In this document: positions 2,869-27,678 of the stretch, one piece after another | Layout of the letters: every line of letters starts with the position of its first letter | How positions within the stretch are numbered: the stretch's first letter is position 1 | Source of the DNA: Microcystis aeruginosa NIES-843 | GTDB taxonomy: Bacteria > Cyanobacteriota > Cyanobacteriia > Cyanobacteriales > Microcystaceae | Direction of reading: 5' to 3' | NCBI RefSeq assembly: GCF_000010625.1 | Contig: NC_010296.1 | Location: 3,420,001-3,452,000 of the forward strand | Length of the DNA stretch: 32,000 bases | Position numbers and translations under genes: made by a program | Notes under the pieces: model-generated | What the model saw: only the letters and a program-made list of their open reading frames with translations | The model's database searches: none | What the model was told of the DNA's origin: nothing

Positions 2869-4107
2869 TTGAATCTCCCTACTCTTTGGACATGGATCTT
2901 ACCGCCGATCGCGGGGGCAATTATTGGCTATTTTACGAACGATGTAGCCATAAAAATGCTATTTCGTCCCTACAAGGCGATTTATATCGGTAAGCGTCCT
3001 CTTCCCTTCACTCCGGGGTTAATTCCTCGCAATCAAGATCGATTAGCTGTCCGGGTATCGGATACGATCATGGGTTCCCTGTTAACCCCCGAGGAACTAC
3101 AAAAACTGGCTAAACGACTCCTCGACACCGAAAGGGTACAGGGGGCGATCCTCTGGCTGTTACAATTAGCTTTAAAACAAATAAAAGGCGATCGGCAAGC
3201 AAAAACAGCCGAGATTTTGGCGGCGATTCTTCACGATTTATTCGGGGAATCTTTAGCGAGATTACTAAAAGTTTTAGCCCGACGGCAGGACTTTTTAGAA
3301 AAACAGATCAATCAAATTTTTGATCGCCTAGTCTTAGAATTTTCTCTCAGTGAACAACAGGCGCGACAATTCTCCGATTGGCTATTAGAAACTGTCCTAC
3401 CTGCTGATGTTATCCGTCTAGCTTTAATCGATTTTTTAACCGATCGCAATATTCAAGTTATCGATGAAGGATTTCGGGAAAAAACCAGTGGAACCTATTG
3501 GGTAGTAGCCAATTTATTCGGTTTACGCAATGCCCTCGCCCGCTTACGCACTTTTTGCCTTGATGAAAAGGATTTAGCTAATACCAGAATCAAAGAATTA
3601 TTACTATCTTTAGAGATGCGTAATCGTCTGAAAAACTGGTTACAAAGTATCTCTTTACAAAATTTACCTATCTCCACCGTCAGACAATTGCGTAAAACCA
3701 CCAGGGATACGGTGCGAATTTATATTCAAGAAAGTGGCGAACAATTTCTGCAAGATTTTGGACAAACGATCGACTGGGATCAAATCGCTAATTTAATTAT
3801 TAATCGTCTGCAATCCTCGGTGTCAATGACTACATCATTAGGGGTAATTAGTCAAGAGTTAGCGTTAATTTTAGAGCGTTATTTAGAGGAAGATTTAGAG
3901 AAATTAGTCGCCCAAATTATCCCGATTCTCAACATCGATCAGGTGATCCGCGATCGGGTGAATGCCACTTCCCCCGCCGATCTGGAAAATGCTATTCAAG
4001 GCATTGTTAAACAGGAATTACAGGGAATTGTTAATCTCGGTGGTATTCTCGGTCTTCTAGTCGGACTAATGCAAACAATTATTTTAATCGCACAGAATCC
4101 GGGGTAA
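2869..4107 (+). CDS. DUF445-family membrane protein
   Basis: 412-aa ORF with a TTG start. N-terminus [18 protein letters not shown]...[10 protein letters not shown] and a C-terminal TM ([18 protein letters not shown]) match the DUF445/UPF0754 pattern recalled from memory. Confidence 0.65.
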
Positions 4108-4110
4108 TAA

Positions 4111-4242
4111 TTAGGGTCTGCTGAAAAAGTTTGTTGGTGGGGGCAGGGTGTGGGGTGTGGGGTGTAGGGTGTGGGGTGTGAATTTTCCCCCTGAAAAAGC
4201 CTTAATCTAACAAGGTTTTTAGATTTATTCAGCAAGCCCTAA
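4111..4242 (+). mobile_element. MITE with internal GGGTGTG heptad array (family 2, copy 1)
   Basis: TIRs TTAGGGTCTGCTGAA (4111-) and TTCAGCAAGCCCTAA (-4242). Internal (GGGTGTG)x5 at 4146-4180. Related copies lie at 8993..9197 and 27111..27265. Confidence 0.6.
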
Positions 4243-4461
4243 TTAGGGTTTGCGGCAAAAAGTACGGGCGAAGCATTCGGGCAATAACCTATCGGTGAAA
4301 CCGTAGATTTTTTATCCGAATGCTTCGCCCCTACAGGACGCGGGCCGATGAAGACGCAAGGTTTTGAAGCACGATTCTCTCAAAATCTTGCACCTGTTTC
4401 GCGAGAAAAGCCACAAAACCCTTACCTTGCCTACATTTCACCTTTATTCAGCACACCCTAA
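4243..4461 (+). mobile_element. MITE family 2-related element abutting the previous copy
   Basis: Starts TTAGGGTTTGCGGCAAAAAG and ends TTATTCAGCACACCCTAA. It contains a perfect 15-bp hairpin, GGGCGAAGCATTCGG ... CCGAATGCTTCGCCC (about 4265-4331). Confidence 0.55.
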
Positions 4462-7351: not shown

Positions 7352-7431
7352 GAAAAAGAAGAACCTCTGGGAGTCTTGCCGTGTTTCGACCCCAAAGGTT
7401 CCTCTTATGCTGAACTTATACTCCTCACACG
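7352..7431 (-). ncRNA. candidate ~80-nt sRNA, or attenuating leader of the ytxH operon
   Basis: Lies downstream of a TTGACA-N18-TAATAT promoter. It ends in an 11-bp hairpin (7401-7391 / 7371-7361) followed by UUCUUUUU. The single imperfect stem position is a U-G wobble on the minus strand but a C-A mismatch on the plus strand. Confidence 0.35.
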
Positions 7432-7437
7432 ATATTT

Positions 7438-7467: not shown

Positions 7468-7551
7468 GGGGTTTATGAAATTTTTTCCATAGACTTCTGG
7501 CCAAATTAATTTTTTAGGGTCGGTAGGCGCTCTTGCCGGGGACGGCTATCA

Positions 7552-8874
7552 TCGAAAATTTGGGTCTGAAACCCCGTCGTTCTACGACGGCTTTACTGTT
7601 AAATATTAGCACATTTACGAAATATATGCTAAAATGTGAGGTATGGAAAAAGCCTATTCGTTTCGATTTTACCCAACACCAGAACAAGAGTGGCTATTGC
7701 GGCGCACATTGGGCTGTGTAAGATTAGTTTACAACAAAGCTCTCCACGAACGAACACAAGCTTGGTACGAAAAGCAAGAAAGAGTAGGCTACGCTCAAAC
7801 TTCTTCAATGCTAACCCATTGGAAAAAACAAGAAGAATTAAACTTTTTAAACGAAGTAAGCTGTGTACCTTTACAACAAGGGTTAAGACACCTACAAACA
7901 GCTTTTACTAATTTCTTTGCTGGTCGTACTAAGTATCCTAACTTTAAGAAAAAACATCAAGGAGGAAGTGCTGAATTTACTAAATCTGCTTTTAAGTTCA
8001 AAGACAAACAAATCTATTTAGCCAAATGCACAGAACCTTTACCTATTCGATGGTCAAGACAAATACCAGAAGCTTGTGAACCAAGTACAGTAACGGTCAG
8101 ATTACATCCTTCTGGACGTTGGCATATCTCAATAAGATTTGATGACCCAACGATTAAGCCATTACCAGTAACAGATAAAGCCATTGGAATTGACTTAGGA
8201 ATTAGTAGCCTCGTGATTACCAGCGATGGTGACAAAGTATCTAATCCTGAGCATTTTAACAAGCATTATCGGAGACTGCGAAGAGCATCTAAAAGTCTTT
8301 CTCGAAAACAGAAAGGGTCAAAAAATCGGGAAAAAGCGAGAATCAAAGTAGCAAGGATTCACGCTCAAATTACTGATAGTAGAAAAGACCATTTACATAA
8401 GCTAACCACTCAATTAGTTCGTGAAAACCAAACGGTTGTGGTTGAGAATTTAGCCGTCAAGAATATGGTCAAAAACCCCAAGTTATCTCAGGCAATATCT
8501 GATGTAAGTTGGGGAGAAATCACTCGACAATTAGCCTATAAATGCCGTTGGTATGGGAGAAATTACATCGAAATAGATAGATGGTTTCCTAGCTCTAAAA
8601 GGTGTAGTAATTGTGGGTATATTGCCCTTGAAAATGCCGTTAAATGTTCGAGAATGGGACTGTCCAGACTGTGGGACTCACCATGACCGAGATATTAACG
8701 CCAGTAAAAACATTTTGGCCGCAGGGCTTGCGGTGTCAGTCTGTAGAGCGACCATAAGACCAGAACAGAGTAAATCTGTTAAGGCAGGTGCGAAAAATCC
8801 TTCGGGAAAGAAGCAGAAACCTAAATCGTGAGGTTTGGGAATCACCGTCCGTTTACGGCGGTGAGGATGTCAAA
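7552..8874 (+). mobile_element. IS200/IS605-family, tnpB-only (IS1341-type) element, copy 1
   Basis: The LE has the subterminal hairpin CCGTCGTTCTACGACGG. The RE has the hairpin CACCGTCCGTTTACGGCGGTG and ends GGATGTCAAA. No tnpA and no TIRs are present. Ends were defined by where homology among the three copies stops. Confidence 0.8.
7643..8831 (+). pseudogene. tnpB: tnpB (RNA-guided endonuclease), +1 frameshift near 8622-8640
   Basis: The 347-aa ORF and the 72-aa ORF (8613..8831) together match the intact 395-aa copy. Here ATTGCCCTTGAAAATGCCG (19 nt) replaces ATTGTGAAAAAGCTGCCG (18 nt). The second CxxC and the RuvC-III HDRD motif are therefore out of frame. Confidence 0.85.
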
Positions 8875-8992
8875 CTAAATCACTGGTTAAGACTGTCTAT
8901 GAGCGCCGGAGCTGCGGAGCGGGGAGAGGTAGTTTGAGCATTTGTACTAAAATTCTCAAGAGGCAGTTTAAATACAGTAAGCTAAGACGTAC

Positions 8993-9197
8993 TTAGGGTT
9001 TGCTGAAAAAGTTTTTCGTGGGGATAGGGTGTGGGGTGTGGGGTTTTACCGATTTTGAGGGGGTCAATTACCTAATTTTCAGGGAAAAAGTACCTGAATT
9101 TTACCCCCGATCACTCCAATGGTTGGCACTTTTTGAGGGAAAAAAAGTCTAAAAGTCTTACCCAACAAGGTTTTTAGATTTATTCAGCAAACCCTAC
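8993..9197 (+). mobile_element. MITE family 2, copy 2
   Basis: TIRs TTAGGGTTTGCTGAAAAAG / TTTATTCAGCAAACCCTA, with an internal GGGTGTG repeat (about 9028-9046). Confidence 0.55.
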
Positions 9198-9396
9198 TTA
9201 AACTGCTTATTCTTAGATTAGCCCAATCTCCCCCCCCCAACCCTATAGGGTTGATTCATTTAAATTAAGTACAGCGGATTTTGAGTCAATAAATTTGAAT
9301 GAAAATTCTCAAGTTTATCTTTTTCTAATCAAAAGAGTTAGTGACAATAACTAATCTTTAATCCTCTGCCAATATTGATTATGAATAAATTGATAA

Positions 9397-15884: not shown

Positions 15885-16110
15885 TTTGACATCCTCGCCG
15901 CCGTAAAACGGACGGCGATTCCCAAACCTCACGATTTAGGTTTCTGCTTCTTTCCCGAAGGATTTTTCGCACCTGCCTTCACAGATTTACTCTGTTCTGG
16001 TCTTATGGTCGCTCCACAGACTGACACCGCAAGCCCTGCGGCCAAAATATTTTTACTGGCGTTAATGTCTCGGTCATGGTGAGTCCCACAGTTCGGACAG
16101 TCCCACTCTC
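15885..16110 (-). ncRNA. predicted omega (right-end) RNA of the intact IS copy (5' limit approximate)
   Basis: In characterised TnpB systems the guide RNA scaffold overlaps the tnpB 3' end and the RE. The RE hairpin here shows a compensatory A:T to G:C change between copies 1 and 2. Confidence 0.4.
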
Positions 16111-17116
16111 GAACATTTAACGGCAGCTTTTTCACAATATACCCACAATTACTGCACCGTTTAGAACTGGGAAAACATCTATCTATTTCGATGTAATTTT
16201 TCCCGTACCAACGGCATTTATAGGCTAATTGTCGGGTGATTTCTCCCCAGCTTACATCAGATATTGCCTGAGATAATTTCGGGTTTTTGACCATATTCTT
16301 AACGGCTAAATTCTCAACCACAATCGTTTGGTTTTCACGAACTAATTGAGTGGTTAGCTTGTGTAAATGGTCTTTCCTGCTATCGGTGATTTGAGCGTGA
16401 ATCTTGGCTACTTTGATTCTTGCTTTTTCCCGATTCTTTGAGTCTTTCTGTTTTCTAGAAAGATTTTTTTGTGCTTTTCGCAACCTCTGATAATGTTTCT
16501 TAAAATGCTTAGGATTAGATACTTTATCGCCATCGCTGGTACTCACGAGGCTACTAATTCCTAAGTCAATTCCAATGGCTTTATCTGTTACTGGTAAAGG
16601 CTTAATCGTTGGGTCATCAAATCTTATTGAGATATGCCAACGTCCAGAAGGATGTAATCTGACCGTTACTGTACTTGGTTCACATCCGTCTGGTATTTGT
16701 CTTGACCATCGAATAGGTAAAGGTTCTGTGCATTTAGCTAAATAGATTTGTTTGTCTTTAAATTTAAAAGCAGATTTGGTAAATTCGGCACTTCCTCCTT
16801 GATGTTTTTTCTTAAAGTTAGGATACTTAGTACGACCAGCAAAGAAGTTAGTAAAAGCTGTTTGTAGGTGTCTTAAACCTTGTTGTAAAGGAACACAGCT
16901 AACCCCATTCAAAAACTCTAATTCTTCTTGTTTTTTCCACTCAGTCAACATCGAAGAAGTTTCAGTATATCCTACTCTTTCTTGTCTTTCGTACCATGCT
17001 TGTGTTCTGAGATGGAGAGCTTTATTGTAAACTAATCTTACACAGCCCAAGGTGCGCCGCAATAGCGACTCTTGTTCTGCTGTGGGGTAAAATCGAAACG
17101 AATAGGCTTTCTCCAT
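15929..17116 (-). CDS. tnpB: TnpB RNA-guided endonuclease (395 aa, apparently intact)
   Basis: RuvC-I IGIDLG, RuvC-II TIVVENL, zinc finger CSNCGY...CPNCG, and Ruv[16 protein letters not shown] are all in one frame. Confidence 0.9.
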   Translation of the reverse strand: MEKAYSFRFYPTAEQESLLRRTLGCVRLVYNKALHLRTQAWYERQERVGYTETSSMLTEWKKQEELEFLNGVSCVPLQQGLRHLQTAFTNFFAGRTKYPNFKKKHQGGSAEFTKSAFKFKDKQIYLAKCTEPLPIRWSRQIPDGCEPSTVTVRLHPSGRWHISIRFDDPTIKPLPVTDKAIGIDLGISSLVSTSDGDKVSNPKHFKKHYQRLRKAQKNLSRKQKDSKNREKARIKVAKIHAQITDSRKDHLHKLTTQLVRENQTIVVENLAVKNMVKNPKLSQAISDVSWGEITRQLAYKCRWYGKNYIEIDRCFPSSKRCSNCGYIVKKLPLNVREWDCPNCGTHHDRDINASKNILAAGLAVSVCGATIRPEQSKSVKAGAKNPSGKKQKPKS

Positions 17117-17276
17117 ATCTCACATTCTAGCATATATCGTGTAAATGCGCTACTATTTCATAGTAAAGCCGTCCTTTGAGAACGGGGTTTCAGAGCCAAA
17201 ATTGGCGATGACACTTGAGAACCAGTGATTTTTTCTCCTAAACCCAAGTTTTTCTGCTGGCAATTCCTTATTATCT

Positions 17277-23089: not shown

Positions 23090-23211
23090 TAGACTAACTC
23101 CTCATACTGTAGTGTTTTCATCGAAAATTTGGGTCTGAAACCCCGTCGTTCTACGACGGCTTTACCGTTAAATATTAGCGCATTTACACGATATATGCTA
23201 GAATGCGAGAT

Positions 23212-24313
23212 ATGGAAAAAGCCTATTCTTACCGATTTTACCCAACACCAGAACAAGAGTCGCTATTGCGGCGCACTTTGGGCTGTGTAAGATTAGTTTA
23301 CAACAAAGCTCTCCACGAACGAACACAAGCTTGGTATGAAAGACAAGAAAGAGTAGGCTACGCTCAAACTTCTGGTTCTTCGGTTTGTCTTATGCAATGG
23401 ACGGGGTTATAAGGAATGAAACCTTTATAGAGACAGACATTGCCGCAATTTTTGTCAATTGTTGGCGATCTGGAGCGAACTAATCAATTAAATCTCTTGC
23501 CAGATAAGGATTTAGTCGATTTATGCCCCCATGTCGAACCATACCAAGTCCCGAAGAGCCTTTACAACAAGGGTTAAGACATTTACAAACAGCTTTTACT
23601 AATTTCTTTGCTGGTCGGACTAAGTATCCTAACTTTAAGAAAAAACATCAGGGAGGAAGTGCCGAATTTACCAAGTCTGCTTTTAAATTTAAAGACAAAC
23701 AAATCTATTTAGCCAAATGCACAGAACCTTTACCTATTCGATGGTCAAGAAAAATACCAGAAAGCTGTGAACCAAGCACAGTAACAGTCAGATTACATCC
23801 CTCAGGACGTTGGCATATTTCAATTAGATTTGATGACCCAACGATTAAGCCATTACCAGTAACAGATAAAGCCATCGGAATTGACTTAGGAATTAGTAGC
23901 CTAGTAATTACCAGCAATGGCGATAAAGTATCTAATCCTAAGCACTTTAAAAAGCATTATCGGAGACTGCGAAAGGACCCAAAAAGTCTTTCTCGAAAAC
24001 AGAAAGGCTCAAAAAATCGGGAAAAAGCGAGAATCAAAGTAGCCAAGATTCACGCCCAAATTACTGATAACAGAAAAGACCATTTACACAAGCTAACCAC
24101 TCAATTAGTCCGTGAAAACCAAACGATTGTGGTTGAGAACTTAGCCGTCAAGAATATGGTCAAAAACCCGAAATTATCTCAGGCAATATCTGACGTTAGT
24201 TGGGGAGAAATCACCCGACAATTAGCCTATAAATGCCGTTGGTACGGGAAAAATTACATCGAAATAGATAGATGGTTTCCTAGCTCTAAAAGGTGTAGTA
24301 ATTGCGGGTATAT
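23212..24313 (+). pseudogene. tnpB: tnpB remnant: MITE insertion with ~65-bp deletion, plus 3' truncation
   Basis: MEKAYSYRFYPTPEQE... runs to 23373. The 187-bp MITE replaces the codons for SMLT.WKKQEEL.FLN.VSCV. The frame resumes at 23561 (PLQQGLRHLQ) and ends at ...CSNCGYI. Confidence 0.85.
23374..23560. mobile_element. 187-bp MITE, copy B
   Basis: Same length and orientation as 1195..1381 (TIR GGTTCTTCG / CGAAGAGCC). There is no TSD, consistent with an associated deletion. Confidence 0.8.
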
Positions 24314-24742
24314 CTGGACTTCCCCCGTATAAACATACTAGCTATGGCTAAAAGTCTTACAGAGCCTGAGTTAAAGCCATATAATACTAATGGACTACTG
24401 GACACAAAATCCTGAAGTCCTTACGCAGATAGGGTTTGAGGCAAAAATTTTCAAATTTGACCTTTCGACCATTATAGCTTGTTTCGGGGCAGAAAACCAT
24501 CAAAAACATGGCTACAGAGGGAATCGCTGACTCTAGAGATTAATGACACCATCTGTTACAATAAGGTTAGCGATCACTATACAGCCAACTCTACGGAATC
24601 GCTCTACTCCAGATACAGTCAACGGTACAGCCATTTTCAAGGGAAAAATGTACCCAGTAGCGGCTTGTCAATTTTTTCTGAGAAGCTCCAGGCAGTAAGG
24701 GTTTTGTTGATTTTTTAGTATTTCTGTATGGGGGAAGTCCAG
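24314..24742. mobile_element. 429-bp non-autonomous TIR element
   Basis: Termini CTGGACTTCCCCCGTA / TATGGGGGAAGTCCAG (about 15 of 16 complementary). No credible transposase ORF lies inside. Confidence 0.6.
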
Positions 24743-24990: not shown

Positions 24991-25018
24991 GTAGTCGTGC
25001 AAAATTAATTTCCTAGTC

Positions 25019-25086
25019 GAGACTCGGAGACTCCGAGACTCCGAGACTCCGAGACTCCGAGACTCCGAGACGGGAGACTCCGAGAC
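25019..25086. repeat. tandem octamer (GAGACTCC) array, ~8 units
   Basis: Direct reading. It is bounded by a 12-bp inverted repeat, GCAAAATTAATT (24999-25010) / AATTAATTTTGC (25168-25179). Confidence 0.9.
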
Positions 25087-25193
25087 AGCTATTAGGGATC
25101 GGATTTGAGTTTTCAGTTCACTGTTTCCTCACACCAGAAGTCTGACGGAGTAGTGGCTTAGATGTGTAATTAATTTTGCTTAGGTACTTAATA

Positions 25194-25590: not shown

Positions 25591-26205
25591 CTAATAACCG
25601 CGCCAAACACCAACCAAAACCCCTTGCACTTGTACTTGTTCGGTATTGGCTGTAATTGGTTGGTATTTTTGATTGGAGGGTTGGAGAGTGATGATTTCGC
25701 CTTCTTGGTAGAAACGTTTTAAAGTAGTGCCGTGGCCTTCGACTCTAGCGGCGACGATTTCCCCATTGGAGACCGCTTCATTACCCGTGAGAGAACGCAT
25801 AATCACCAGATCCCCATCGGCAATATGATCCTCGATCATACTGTCTCCGGAAACCCGCAGAGCATAACAGTCTTGACTGCGTTGCAACAGGTTAGAAAGA
25901 TCGAGTTTTTCTTCCACATCGGTGAAGGGTTCCACTAAACCACCAGCAGCGATCGCACCCAGAACCGGTAAACCTTGCACTGGTTGTTTGAGAATCCGCA
26001 GGGTGCGTGCTTTTCCTTCTGTCCAATCAATATAGCCTTTGGCGCGTAAACGTTCTAAACGGCTTTGAATCGGTGCGGGAGAGCGTAAATTCATCGCTCG
26101 CATCATTTGCCGGATGGAAGGGGCGTGCTGAGTAGTGCTAATGTACTCAATTAGCCAGTCGTACAACTCCTGTTGCGCTTGAGTAAGGGATTCGAGGTTA
26201 GTCAT
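25591..26205 (-). CDS. lexA: LexA repressor (S24 peptidase)
   Basis: wHTH N-terminus (SIRQMMRAMNLRSPAPIQSRLERLRAKGYI), Ala-Gly site (GAIAAGG), catalytic Ser (VSGDSM) and Lys (TLKRF). Confidence 0.9.
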   Translation of the reverse strand: MTNLESLTQAQQELYDWLIEYISTTQHAPSIRQMMRAMNLRSPAPIQSRLERLRAKGYIDWTEGKARTLRILKQPVQGLPVLGAIAAGGLVEPFTDVEEKLDLSNLLQRSQDCYALRVSGDSMIEDHIADGDLVIMRSLTGNEAVSNGEIVAARVEGHGTTLKRFYQEGEIITLQPSNQKYQPITANTEQVQVQGVLVGVWRGY

Positions 26206-26253: not shown

Positions 26254-26348
26254 TTGTGTTTAACCTAGTACATCTTAACTTCATCGGCTGACTAAATCAA
26301 CTGGTTATTAGATCTCTTGCAAAAATCAAAAATTGTCGTGCTTGGTTA

Positions 26349-26385
26349 GGAGACTCCGAGACAGGAGACTCCGAGACAGGAGACA
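26349..26385. repeat. tandem 15-mer (GGAGACTCCGAGACA)x2.5
   Basis: Direct reading. It has the same core and orientation as the 25019-25086 array. Confidence 0.9.
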
Positions 26386-26417
26386 GGGGATTATTTCTAT
26401 TTATTCTTCCGACACCC

Positions 26418-27108
26418 GTTACAGTAGAGCAGGAAGTCGCCTTCCCACCCCCTGCTTCAAAACCGGACTTACGACTTTCGCCGTATCCGGCTCCTGAGTA
26501 ACTAGGCTACTGTCATTAGTAGAATAATAATGGGAATTATTATTTCCTTGTCTATTCAACCCTCTTGGCTGTATCCCCACCAGACAAGATTGTTGGTTTT
26601 AGGGCGTATATGACCGTTGATTGTTGCTTAGACTTCCTAGTTACCCGTCCTTTGTCAGCATATCTTTGATATTACTCAAAGCCTTGGCTTTTAAGGACAT
26701 CCTCTCCCTCTATTGACTTGCGGATGGTTTCCTACTGCCCCGAACGGGCAGAGTCAATCAGGGTTACTTCGTTCCCTATAACCATTGGTTGAACCCTTAG
26801 GATGATACTGTCCACAACAGAGTAACGGGAATGCCTTACTGATAGTGGTATGAGCTATCAGCCCCAACTCTGTTAACTTTTGTTTCGAGCCTGTCAGCCT
26901 TTTGGCTCGTGGGTGTTGACGATGGTTAATTCGTATCTTCGCCCCAGGGCTATCCATAAGTTCTGGCTCAACGGGTTTCTGATTTAGGCTATCAGATACC
27001 GCTTTTTTTTCCTCGCTCACTACCTCAGATGTACCAAGTCTAAAGCAGCAGGAAATGCCGTCACTCTAGGCATCTAGAGGACAGGACTAAGGTTATTACT
27101 AACCCGCA
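26418..27108 (-). mobile_element. ORF-less group II intron (691 nt)
   Basis: 5' GUGCG at 27108-27104. Canonical domain V at 26493-26460. Domain VI has a bulged A (26425) 7 nt from the 3'-terminal AAC. Domain IV is a short AU hairpin with no RT/maturase ORF. Confidence 0.8.
26460..26493 (-). ncRNA. group II intron domain V
   Basis: GAGCCGGAUACGGCGAAAGUCGUAAGUCCGGUUU is 34 nt. It has the AGC catalytic triad at positions 2-4, 9+5 bp helices split by a 2-nt AA bulge, and a GAAA tetraloop. Confidence 0.85.
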
Positions 27109-27110
27109 CC

Positions 27111-27265
27111 TGTAGGGTTATAAAGTTATCAAGGTACTACATTTACCAAGCGGCTAATCCTCTAAACGTCTTACTGTCTAGTTTCTAGCCAACGAATCGC
27201 ACCACACCCTACACCCTACACCCCACACCCTGCCCCCAGGAAAAACTTTTTGCCGCAAACCCTAA
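27111..27265 (-). mobile_element. MITE family 2, copy 3 (minus orientation), 2 nt from the intron 5' end
   Basis: The minus strand reads TTAGGGTTTGCGGCAAAAAG...GGGTGTG-type heptads...TTTATAACCCTAC. The heptad array is at 27203-27235. Confidence 0.5.
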
Positions 27266-27678
27266 TTAATAATTCATAATTCCTTCTCCCTTCTCCCATG
27301 CAGTCTTAACGAGTAATTTAGATAGTCAACAGCTTATCTTCTGACCTAGCACTTTTTTTTTAAAAGTATCATTAATTTTTATCTCAATTCTGAATATTAA
27401 TTAATCCCAGGGTCGGTTGCTGGCAAACTCAGCAGCGTATTAAGAAAAAATAACGAATTGCTAGAAAGCCCAGAATCTGGATAATGATCGAGGTGGAGAC
27501 AGAAAAATTGCTCTACTTAAGCCTGTCTGCCGTAAGCGTCCAATAGTAGATAGGGAGTCAAAAGCGACGCTCAAGAAAATCCTTCGGTTGTCAGGGAAAC
27601 GAGAGGATATTTAGTGCGAAATTGAGCCGTAAAAAAACTTAAAATCCCGACAAATATCGTAAAAACTAAGGGGAACAC

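Follow-up and report, generated by a model that had tools for sequence, protein, structure and literature searches.

A group II intron without an open reading frame (ORF) was identified in a 32,000-nt stretch of the Microcystis aeruginosa NIES-843 genome (contig NC_010296.1, positions 3,420,001 to 3,452,000), hereafter called the window, in the non-coding DNA upstream of lexA. The intron is 785 nt long and occupies positions 27202-26418 of the minus strand. Comparison with relatives, with an intron-less contig and with other Microcystis copies makes it probable that the element is a complete and still functional ORF-less derivative of a chloroplast-like (CL)/IIB1-type intron, which would retrohome into a repeated heptamer, would use a protein supplied in trans and would have no role for lexA.

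The catalytic end of the element was recognized by the Rfam group II intron model RF00029, which matched positions 26418-26495 of the minus strand over the full length of the model (55.0 bits, gathering score 40; E = 2.3e-8 in a search of the whole window). The match was confirmed by a local scan, and the Plastid-ndhA-ndhB-1 D5 model also matched there (41.7 bits), domain V (DV) of the element resembling the plastid ndhA/ndhB D5 families. These results agree with a preliminary description of this DNA, which had proposed an ORF-less group II intron in non-coding DNA, co-oriented with lexA and 212 nt upstream of it. The 34-nt DV with AGC triad, AA bulge and GAAA loop that it described was found in the Rfam alignment, and domain VI (DVI) with a GCGA loop and a bulged adenosine at 26425, the 8th nucleotide counted from the 3' end, in both the Rfam and the family alignments; the position relative to lexA follows from the coordinates of the intron 3' end (26418) and the lexA start (26205). 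The Rfam covariance models suggested there as a check gave a mixed result, Intron_gpII scoring above its threshold and the group-II-D1D4 models below theirs: only a partial match to group-II-D1D4-2 was seen in the window, at 26989-27056 (26.7 bits, gathering score 36). Among 17 relatives, too, cmscan gave no D1D4 match at the gathering score; this intron family is outside the range of the Rfam D1D4 models.

The 5' end at 27202 was located by four lines of evidence: homology to relatives, an intron-less allele, the structure of domain I (DI) together with pairing between exon-binding and intron-binding sites (EBS and IBS), and the junctions of other copies. When plasmids were searched by blastn with positions 27210-26418, cyanobacterial matches started at query position 8-9, corresponding to 27202-27203. 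Those that are annotated are full-length introns, in which an ltrA or RNA-directed DNA polymerase gene begins about 600 nt downstream of where the match starts. Positions 26417-25051 are matched at 100% identity by contig L002, whose upstream sequence reads ...CAGGGTGTGGGGTGTAGGGTGTAGGGTGTG followed directly by GGGTGTCGG, with a heptamer array abutting the 3' exon. The segment missing from L002 is exactly 27202-26418, with a one-base ambiguity; the contig could be read as an empty allele or as ligated exons. GUGCG at 27202 and ...UAAC at 26418 are thus the ends indicated both by L002 and by the divergence of the flanks in 14 other copies. As homology, L002, structure and the other copies agree on 27202, the length of the intron is therefore 785 nt.

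The boundaries given in the preliminary description were different. It placed the 5' end at a GUGCG at 27108, giving a 691-nt intron (692 nt from 27109), and took as 5' exon, and as a possible homing site, a MITE (miniature inverted-repeat transposable element) terminus, ...AACCCTAC. A GUGCG is indeed present, at 27109-27105 and thus off by one, with a small GNRA hairpin after it; the sub-threshold group-II-D1D4-2 match begins at model position 47, which would be roughly compatible with a 5' end nearby. However, relatives from Acaryochloris, Nostoc, Fremyella and other cyanobacteria are homologous to the window across 27202-27110, an Acaryochloris plasmid match of about 255 nt spanning the proposed start at 27109, and in these relatives GAG, GUG or GAC replaces the GCG of the motif. 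Positions 27202-27110 also provide the 5' strand of covarying DI closing helices and are missing from the intron-less L002. Furthermore, every other copy has the heptamer, and never AACCCTAC, as its 5' exon directly 5' of GTGCGATTCG. The alignments of relatives, L002 and the junctions of other copies refute the shorter boundaries, and the probability left to them is negligible. The shorter version lacks 93 nt and thereby loses the 5' strand of the DI closing helix (7-12/430-435), and its GUGCG is internal to DI.

A consensus structure was calculated with RNAalifold from 11 members of the family. The consensus of DI to domain III (DIII) contained 104 pairs, compensatory changes being seen in 56, and the window copy retains 97 of the 104 (93%), compared with 92-98% in the protein-encoding relatives. 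Beyond helix 7-12/430-435, further helices of the consensus draw on intron positions 13-93. The sequence AACCCTAC lies inside DI and is conserved in relatives of other genera; its partner in the consensus structure is the intron segment at ~419-430. Folding of the 785-nt sequence alone gave a minimum free energy (MFE) structure with exactly six exterior helices, among them the DI closing helix, and a z-score of -4.79 against shuffled sequences. DI to DIII are thus foldable, as the preliminary description had asked to be checked, and the element is, as far as its sequence goes, an intact-looking ribozyme without a protein gene. The features are listed in Table 1.

Table 1. Positions of the intron, its domains, its target and neighbouring features in the window
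Feature	Position	Strand	Evidence or remark
Complete ORF-less group II intron, 5' GUGCG...UGUAAC 3'	26418..27202	-	Homology, empty contig, copies, fold
True 5' splice-site consensus GUGCG	27198..27202	-	GTGCGATTCGTTGGCTAGAAAC invariant at 5' ends of relatives; flanks upstream unrelated
Internal GUGCG, part of DI	27105..27109	-	Aligns with AGGUGAG/AGGUGUG/UGGUGAC of relatives
DI	26765..27201	-	Intron 2-438; closing helix 7-12 UUCGUU with 430-435 AACGAA
Domain II (predicted)	26706..26763	-	Intron 440-497; single-sequence MFE; only a 3-bp inner helix in consensus
DIII	26647..26698	-	Intron 505-556; consensus helices with compensatory changes (columns 694-749) and MFE
Domain IV, protein gene deleted	26496..26646	-	Intron 557-707; alignment with relatives
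Remnant of protein start region in domain IV	26596-26611	-	ATG changed to ACG
AU-rich stub hairpin in domain IV	26523-26544	-	New, at deletion point
DV, 34 nt, AGC triad, 2-nt AA bulge, GAAA loop	26460..26493	-	Rfam match; MFE helix is intron 709-744
DVI, GCGA loop, bulged branch-point A 26425	26421..26455	-	Rfam and family alignments; intron 748-782
EBS2 ACACCC	26911..26916	-	Pairs with IBS2 GGGUGU, exon -14..-9
EBS1 CAUACC, loop of hairpin 26839-26861	26847..26852	-	Pairs with IBS1 GGUGUG, -6..-1, one G-U
5' exon target: IBS2 27216-27211 GGGTGT, spacer 27210-27209 AG, IBS1 27208-27203 GGTGTG	27203..27216	-	Junction comparison
3' exon start GGG, +1 G presumed IBS3	26415..26417	-	Junction comparison
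Heptamer target, insertion point between GGGTGTAGGGTGTG and GGG			
Left part of MITE (terminal TAATTAGGGTTTGC..., then GGGTGTR array), intron inserted	27203..27271	-	Repeats I5, I8, I13; alignment A1 with the MITE copies at ~4105-4250 and ~8990-9200
Unoccupied potential homing sites GGGTGTRGGGTGTRG, MITE copy ~4105-4250	4146..4174	+	Motif search
Unoccupied potential homing site, third MITE copy	9027..9041	+	Motif search
lexA, downstream neighbour, not part of the element	25591..26205	-	LexA_DNA_bind and Peptidase_S24 domains

No intron-encoded protein (IEP) was found in the element. Its longest internal ORF has 88 aa and a GTG start, as expected from the earlier statement that there is no room for an IEP, and tblastn with the IEPs of relatives gave no match within the window. 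The alignment with relatives extends through their IEP start codon, where the window reads ATATACGCCCTAAAAC and the relatives ATATATGTCTAAAAC, and then resumes in the 3' strand of domain IV (DIV) just before DV, indicating that the ORF was lost by a deletion within DIV. The deletion is confined to DIV, remnants of the ORF are present and no similarity to reverse transcriptase (RT) remains. DIV still measures about 150 nt in total and retains its conserved 3' strand up to DV; the short AU hairpin that had been taken for the whole of DIV is only its tip. A DIVa-like region appears to be kept around the former start codon, which would fit with continued binding of an IEP. Because the intron encodes no protein, it would need the RT/maturase of another intron, and the suggestion that a maturase is supplied in trans is supported to this extent, provided that the intron is active.

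To explore the family, the 22-nt 5' end was used to scan genomes, one for each species. At least 120 loci were found; among the matches listed, titled records are nearly all cyanobacterial and include Nostoc, Calothrix, Moorena, Microcoleus, Acaryochloris and Microcystis. At many of these loci the intron measures 2.41-2.54 kb and has an Rfam DV/DVI match at its end, for which cmscan was used since a regular-expression search for DV was too crude. The IEPs of the full-length relatives have RVT_N, RVT_1, GIIM and HNH domains, and the solved structure that they match best is the T.el4h IEP of Thermosynechococcus (6ME0_C, E = 2.5e-101), compared with 6.9e-32 for the IIA protein LtrA and 1e-21 to 1e-31 for IIC RTs. 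Since the T. elongatus introns belong to CL/IIB1 (PMC2882425), the structure matches of these IEPs make a CL IIB/IIB1 family the most likely assignment.

Examples of the IEP-encoding members are the ltrA intron of Acaryochloris marina pREB1 (L004 4002-6455) and an intron of Fremyella diplosiphon plasmid07 (L006 3501-5927). Such members share with the window intron the first 22-27 nt, alignable DI-DIII, DV and DVI, EBS1 and EBS2 loops at equal positions and UAAC or UAAU 3' ends. In contrast to it, they are 2.4-2.5 kb long and carry an RT-maturase-HNH gene, and they have their own EBS and targets, the latter ranging from a Tn3 transposase gene and other genes to domain V of a different intron. 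In conserved blocks they are only about 65-80% identical to the window copy at the nucleotide level. L005 was initially considered a 1129-nt ORF-less relative; its alignment revealed an internally deleted copy with RT-coding sequence remaining, and it was dropped as a comparator. In two Nostoc genomes the family relatives L005 (3501-4629) and L019 (4996-7411) interrupt domain V of a second group II intron, with GAGCCGGATGAGGTGAAAGT before and CTCACGTCCGGT after the inner intron. Such an arrangement would amount to a twintron, with the outer intron's catalytic domain as the homing site.

The target of the window intron was defined by comparing junctions. In 15 independent 5' junctions GGGTGT was present at -14..-9 in every case and at -7..-2 in 14, so that the related copies share the IBS2/IBS1 register of the heptamer, and in nine 3' junctions position +1 was always G, with G at +2 and at +3 in eight of the nine. 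The two DI loops assigned as EBS1 and EBS2 vary among family members, and in the relatives too they match each intron's own 5' exon. For EBS1, complementarity to the cognate exon averaged 5.55 of 6 positions, compared with 4.47 of 6 for non-cognate exons (11 introns), and the stem of the EBS1 hairpin covaries in the family consensus. Because both the 5' junctions and EBS1/EBS2 match the GGGTGTR register, the homing site deduced from these sequences is the (GGGTGTR)n heptamer array, often MITE-borne, and not a MITE terminus. The earlier proposal of a MITE end as a multi-copy homing site thus holds for a multi-copy, MITE-associated target and fails for the site, which is the internal array; what had been called the 5' exon belongs to DI.

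The MITE into which the window intron is inserted also flanks six other copies (L031, L032, L044, L071, L078 and L128), and many junctions belong to a MITE family marked by GGGTTTGCTGAAAAAGTTTTTC followed by the array; other junctions lie outside this family. L128 carries the intron within a split MITE, of a type present without it at ~8990-9200 of the window. The 15-nt target motif had seven matches in the window with none expected, and two further arrays are empty. These arrays belong to two more heptamer-bearing MITE copies, at ~4105-4250 and ~8990-9200 of the plus strand, which have the ends TAGGGTTTGC...GCAAACCCTA and differ by internal insertions.

Near-identical copies of the intron were found at nine or more other, independent sites in Microcystis-type contigs, with good EBS/IBS pairing. 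Among the matches listed, the 5' ends most similar to that of the window intron come from Microcystis assemblies, at 99% identity over ~100 nt: nine contig ends belong to one M. aeruginosa metagenome-assembled genome, Microcystis sp. T1-4 has two degenerate copies and strain BLCC-F210 a 5' fragment. When metagenomes were scanned with a 23-nt DV string, ten contigs were obtained. Two of them, L127 and L128, contain the whole intron (positions 1-785) at other loci and are 99.6% and 98.5% identical to it; the remaining eight are contig ends with the last 110-124 nt, 98-100% identical (seven at 100%). The nine contigs with a readable 3' exon, including L127 and L128, have eight different 3' exons. 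The window shares a 187-nt MITE and another MITE with intron-bearing Microcystis contigs. Its G+C content is 43.5%, compared with 42.3% for the NIES-843 genome (PMC2779907).

Other Microcystis genomes also hold three degenerate derivatives of the intron, each at a heptamer site. L125 (6285-6676) has internal DI deletions and no DV, L017 (4695-4950) is a 5' fragment, and L031 (1-906, minus strand), compared by blastn, diverges after ~105 nt, gave no DV match and belongs to a contig that ends within the copy.

The element might be an inert relic, recognizable as an intron but no longer splicing or moving, whose copies were passively carried along by the MITE or propagated when heptamer arrays recombined. 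The degenerate copies of Microcystis sp. T1-4 and of BLCC-F210 would suit such a relic, as would an intergenic location where failure to splice costs nothing and the fact that one MITE family hosts many copies. So would the outcome of the search for a helper IEP. Two family IEPs compared by tblastn with the window and with every Microcystis-type locus yielded no relevant match, and no Microcystis name appeared in the best 120 of 7954 matches of a protein search. The introns of four abundant IEP clusters (P0085, P0023, P0041 and P0102) were 68-86% identical to the window intron in short blocks only, and a scan of viral contigs with the 36-nt 5' end gave no match. Seven group II RTs have been reported in M. 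aeruginosa NIES-843, of which six are almost identical and carry a fused HNH/McrA domain (PMC8934634).

On the other hand, heptamer sites without the left end of the MITE are also occupied (L125, L038, L017, L072 and L094), in L125, L038 and L017 outside any recognizable MITE context, and other MITE copies within the window are empty. The diversity of 3' exons indicates that the spread was not simply MITE transposition, and the junction register within the heptamer is constant and matches EBS1 and EBS2. The copies are about 98-100% identical, and the window copy has kept an intact catalytic DV, the branch-point A and 93% of the consensus pairs. We therefore consider an inert relic unlikely.

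Several observations nevertheless weigh against a functional intron with a heptamer target. Position -1 is G in eight and A in seven of the 15 5' junctions, and the A would form a mismatch with the C in CAUACC (EBS1); the EBS1 of these seven copies lies outside the readable sequence of their contigs. The gap of 2 nt between IBS1 and IBS2 is larger than usual, and a promoter scan upstream of the intron placed none. In the Microcystis material searched, no copy was found that has near-identical RNA domains and encodes an IEP. Finally, degenerate copies occur in other Microcystis genomes and both L125 and L017 lack DV, so that the intron family is partly decaying in some strains.

For the functional intron, which we still prefer, the following course of events can be proposed. 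The ancestor would have been a CL/IIB1-type intron of a family common in cyanobacteria, encoding an RT-maturase-HNH protein whose gene was removed by an internal deletion in DIV. The ORF-less intron would then have arrived by retrohoming, in which the RNA is reverse-spliced into DNA and then reverse-transcribed, EBS2 ACACCC and EBS1 CAUACC pairing with GGGUGU-(AG)-GGUGUG where a (GGGTGTR)n array ends and G being the first base of the 3' exon. As such arrays are carried by the Microcystis MITE and occur elsewhere too, each genome would offer many targets and the intron would become multi-copy. Efficient splicing and all mobility would use an RT/maturase from another intron, and the position upstream of lexA would be no more than the place where a heptamer array happened to lie. 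In this scheme retrohoming, present-day splicing and the trans-acting protein are the steps that we infer from sequence. A narrower version has a probability of a little under one half: the element may be a Microcystis-specific protein-less intron specialized on the (GGGTGTR)n microsatellite, a retroelement riding a DNA element, with a helper IEP that is no more than a distant relative or that many host strains lack, for example one brought transiently by a plasmid or phage.

The relation of the intron to lexA was also considered. If it were a leader intron acting in cis, production of LexA would depend on its splicing. The two are co-oriented and only 212 nt apart, with no terminator-like site between them. 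However, three contigs (L001, L002 and L003) have 100% identical lexA and proximal upstream DNA and lack the intron, the same intron is found at many unrelated loci, and no LexA box is near. The LexA box proposed in the preliminary description between the intron and lexA was not recovered: no box of the Anabaena type (RGTACNNNDGTWCB, up to one mismatch) is present there, and across the window such matches (13, with 7.75 expected) are not above chance. A promoter and terminator scan of the intergenic region gave background levels. A regulatory link between the intron and lexA thus has no support, and a cis-acting leader intron seems very improbable.

In the LexA-identical contigs the sequence common with the window starts only at ~26364-26417, and the distal upstream DNA is quite different in three other arrangements. 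Since only the proximal upstream DNA is shared, the lexA promoter most likely lies within the ~160 nt downstream of the intron, and the intron itself is probably a recent and dispensable insertion.

The region has some further features. The DNA upstream of lexA is hypervariable (L001 1-1041 and L003 1-154 compared with window 26364-27430), with four arrangements next to identical LexA and breakpoints at short tandem repeats. Arrays of 8-nt repeats of the GGAGACTC/CGAGACTC type, at 25018-25088 and 26341-26394, flank the lexA-DUF2389 pair, and metagenome contigs break at these arrays. A near-palindromic AGTACATTAGCACT at 26134-26147, inside the lexA coding region, is one mismatch from the Anabaena LexA-box consensus. 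Elsewhere in the window, a MITE of ~187 nt with GGCTCTTCG ends is present in two copies (~1191-1378 and ~23370-23561), its terminal repeat being that of a MITE of M. aeruginosa PCC 7806 (PMC11448079), in line with the Microcystis origin of the window. A Cyano-1 RNA (RF01701) was found at 7352-7434 of the minus strand (54.9 bits, gathering score 41), and three IS200/IS605-type TnpB copies are located at 7549-8686 (plus), 15929-17203 (minus) and 23118-24332 (plus); they are 91-94% mutually identical, and the third ORF is broken.

The closest known counterparts are the TeI3 introns of Thermosynechococcus elongatus, which are ORF-less CL/IIB1 introns for which trans use of the RT/maturase of another intron has been demonstrated (Mohr et al. 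2010, PMC2882425). Like the window intron, they live in a cyanobacterial host and lost their ORF by a DIV deletion that left a remnant of the ORF start (PMC2882425). Both are multi-copy and mostly intergenic, with flanks that pair well with their EBS, and both are presumed to depend on the IEP of another intron; the T.el4h IEP, the closest solved structure for the full-length members of the present family, comes from the TeI3 host. The window intron differs in belonging to another sequence family, with the conserved 5' end GUGCGAUUCGUUGGCUAGAAAC, and in having a mesophilic, bloom-forming host. It also has one type of target, the GGGTGTR array often located in a MITE, whereas TeI3 comprises several EBS families at assorted sites.

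Group II introns on repeated targets are known in other classes, such as RmInt1 (class D) in ISRm2011-2 and the class C introns inserted after terminators or at attC sites. There too, a harmless multi-copy target permits proliferation without damage to genes. Most of those introns have their own IEP, and class C introns read a stem-loop, whereas the target of the window intron is a simple tandem heptamer that would be read by ordinary EBS1/EBS2 pairing. Our literature search found no account of this Microcystis element or of a heptamer/MITE target for an intron. ORF-less, multi-copy, trans-driven CL/IIB1 introns are known from a cyanobacterium (PMC2882425); what seems new is this Microcystis member and its unusual repeat target.

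The case also bears on annotation. The intron is overlooked by standard procedures, having no ORF and only its last 78 nt matched by Rfam, and a GUGCG motif together with DV and DVI is insufficient to set intron boundaries, for which homologues and empty sites are required. The plasticity of Microcystis genomes is well known and has been ascribed to insertion sequences and MITEs. The intron adds to these sources a multi-copy, strain-polymorphic retroelement, whose presence and absence alleles, such as that upstream of lexA, are usable as strain markers, and it is a natural example of how a group II intron can have many safe landing sites in each genome.

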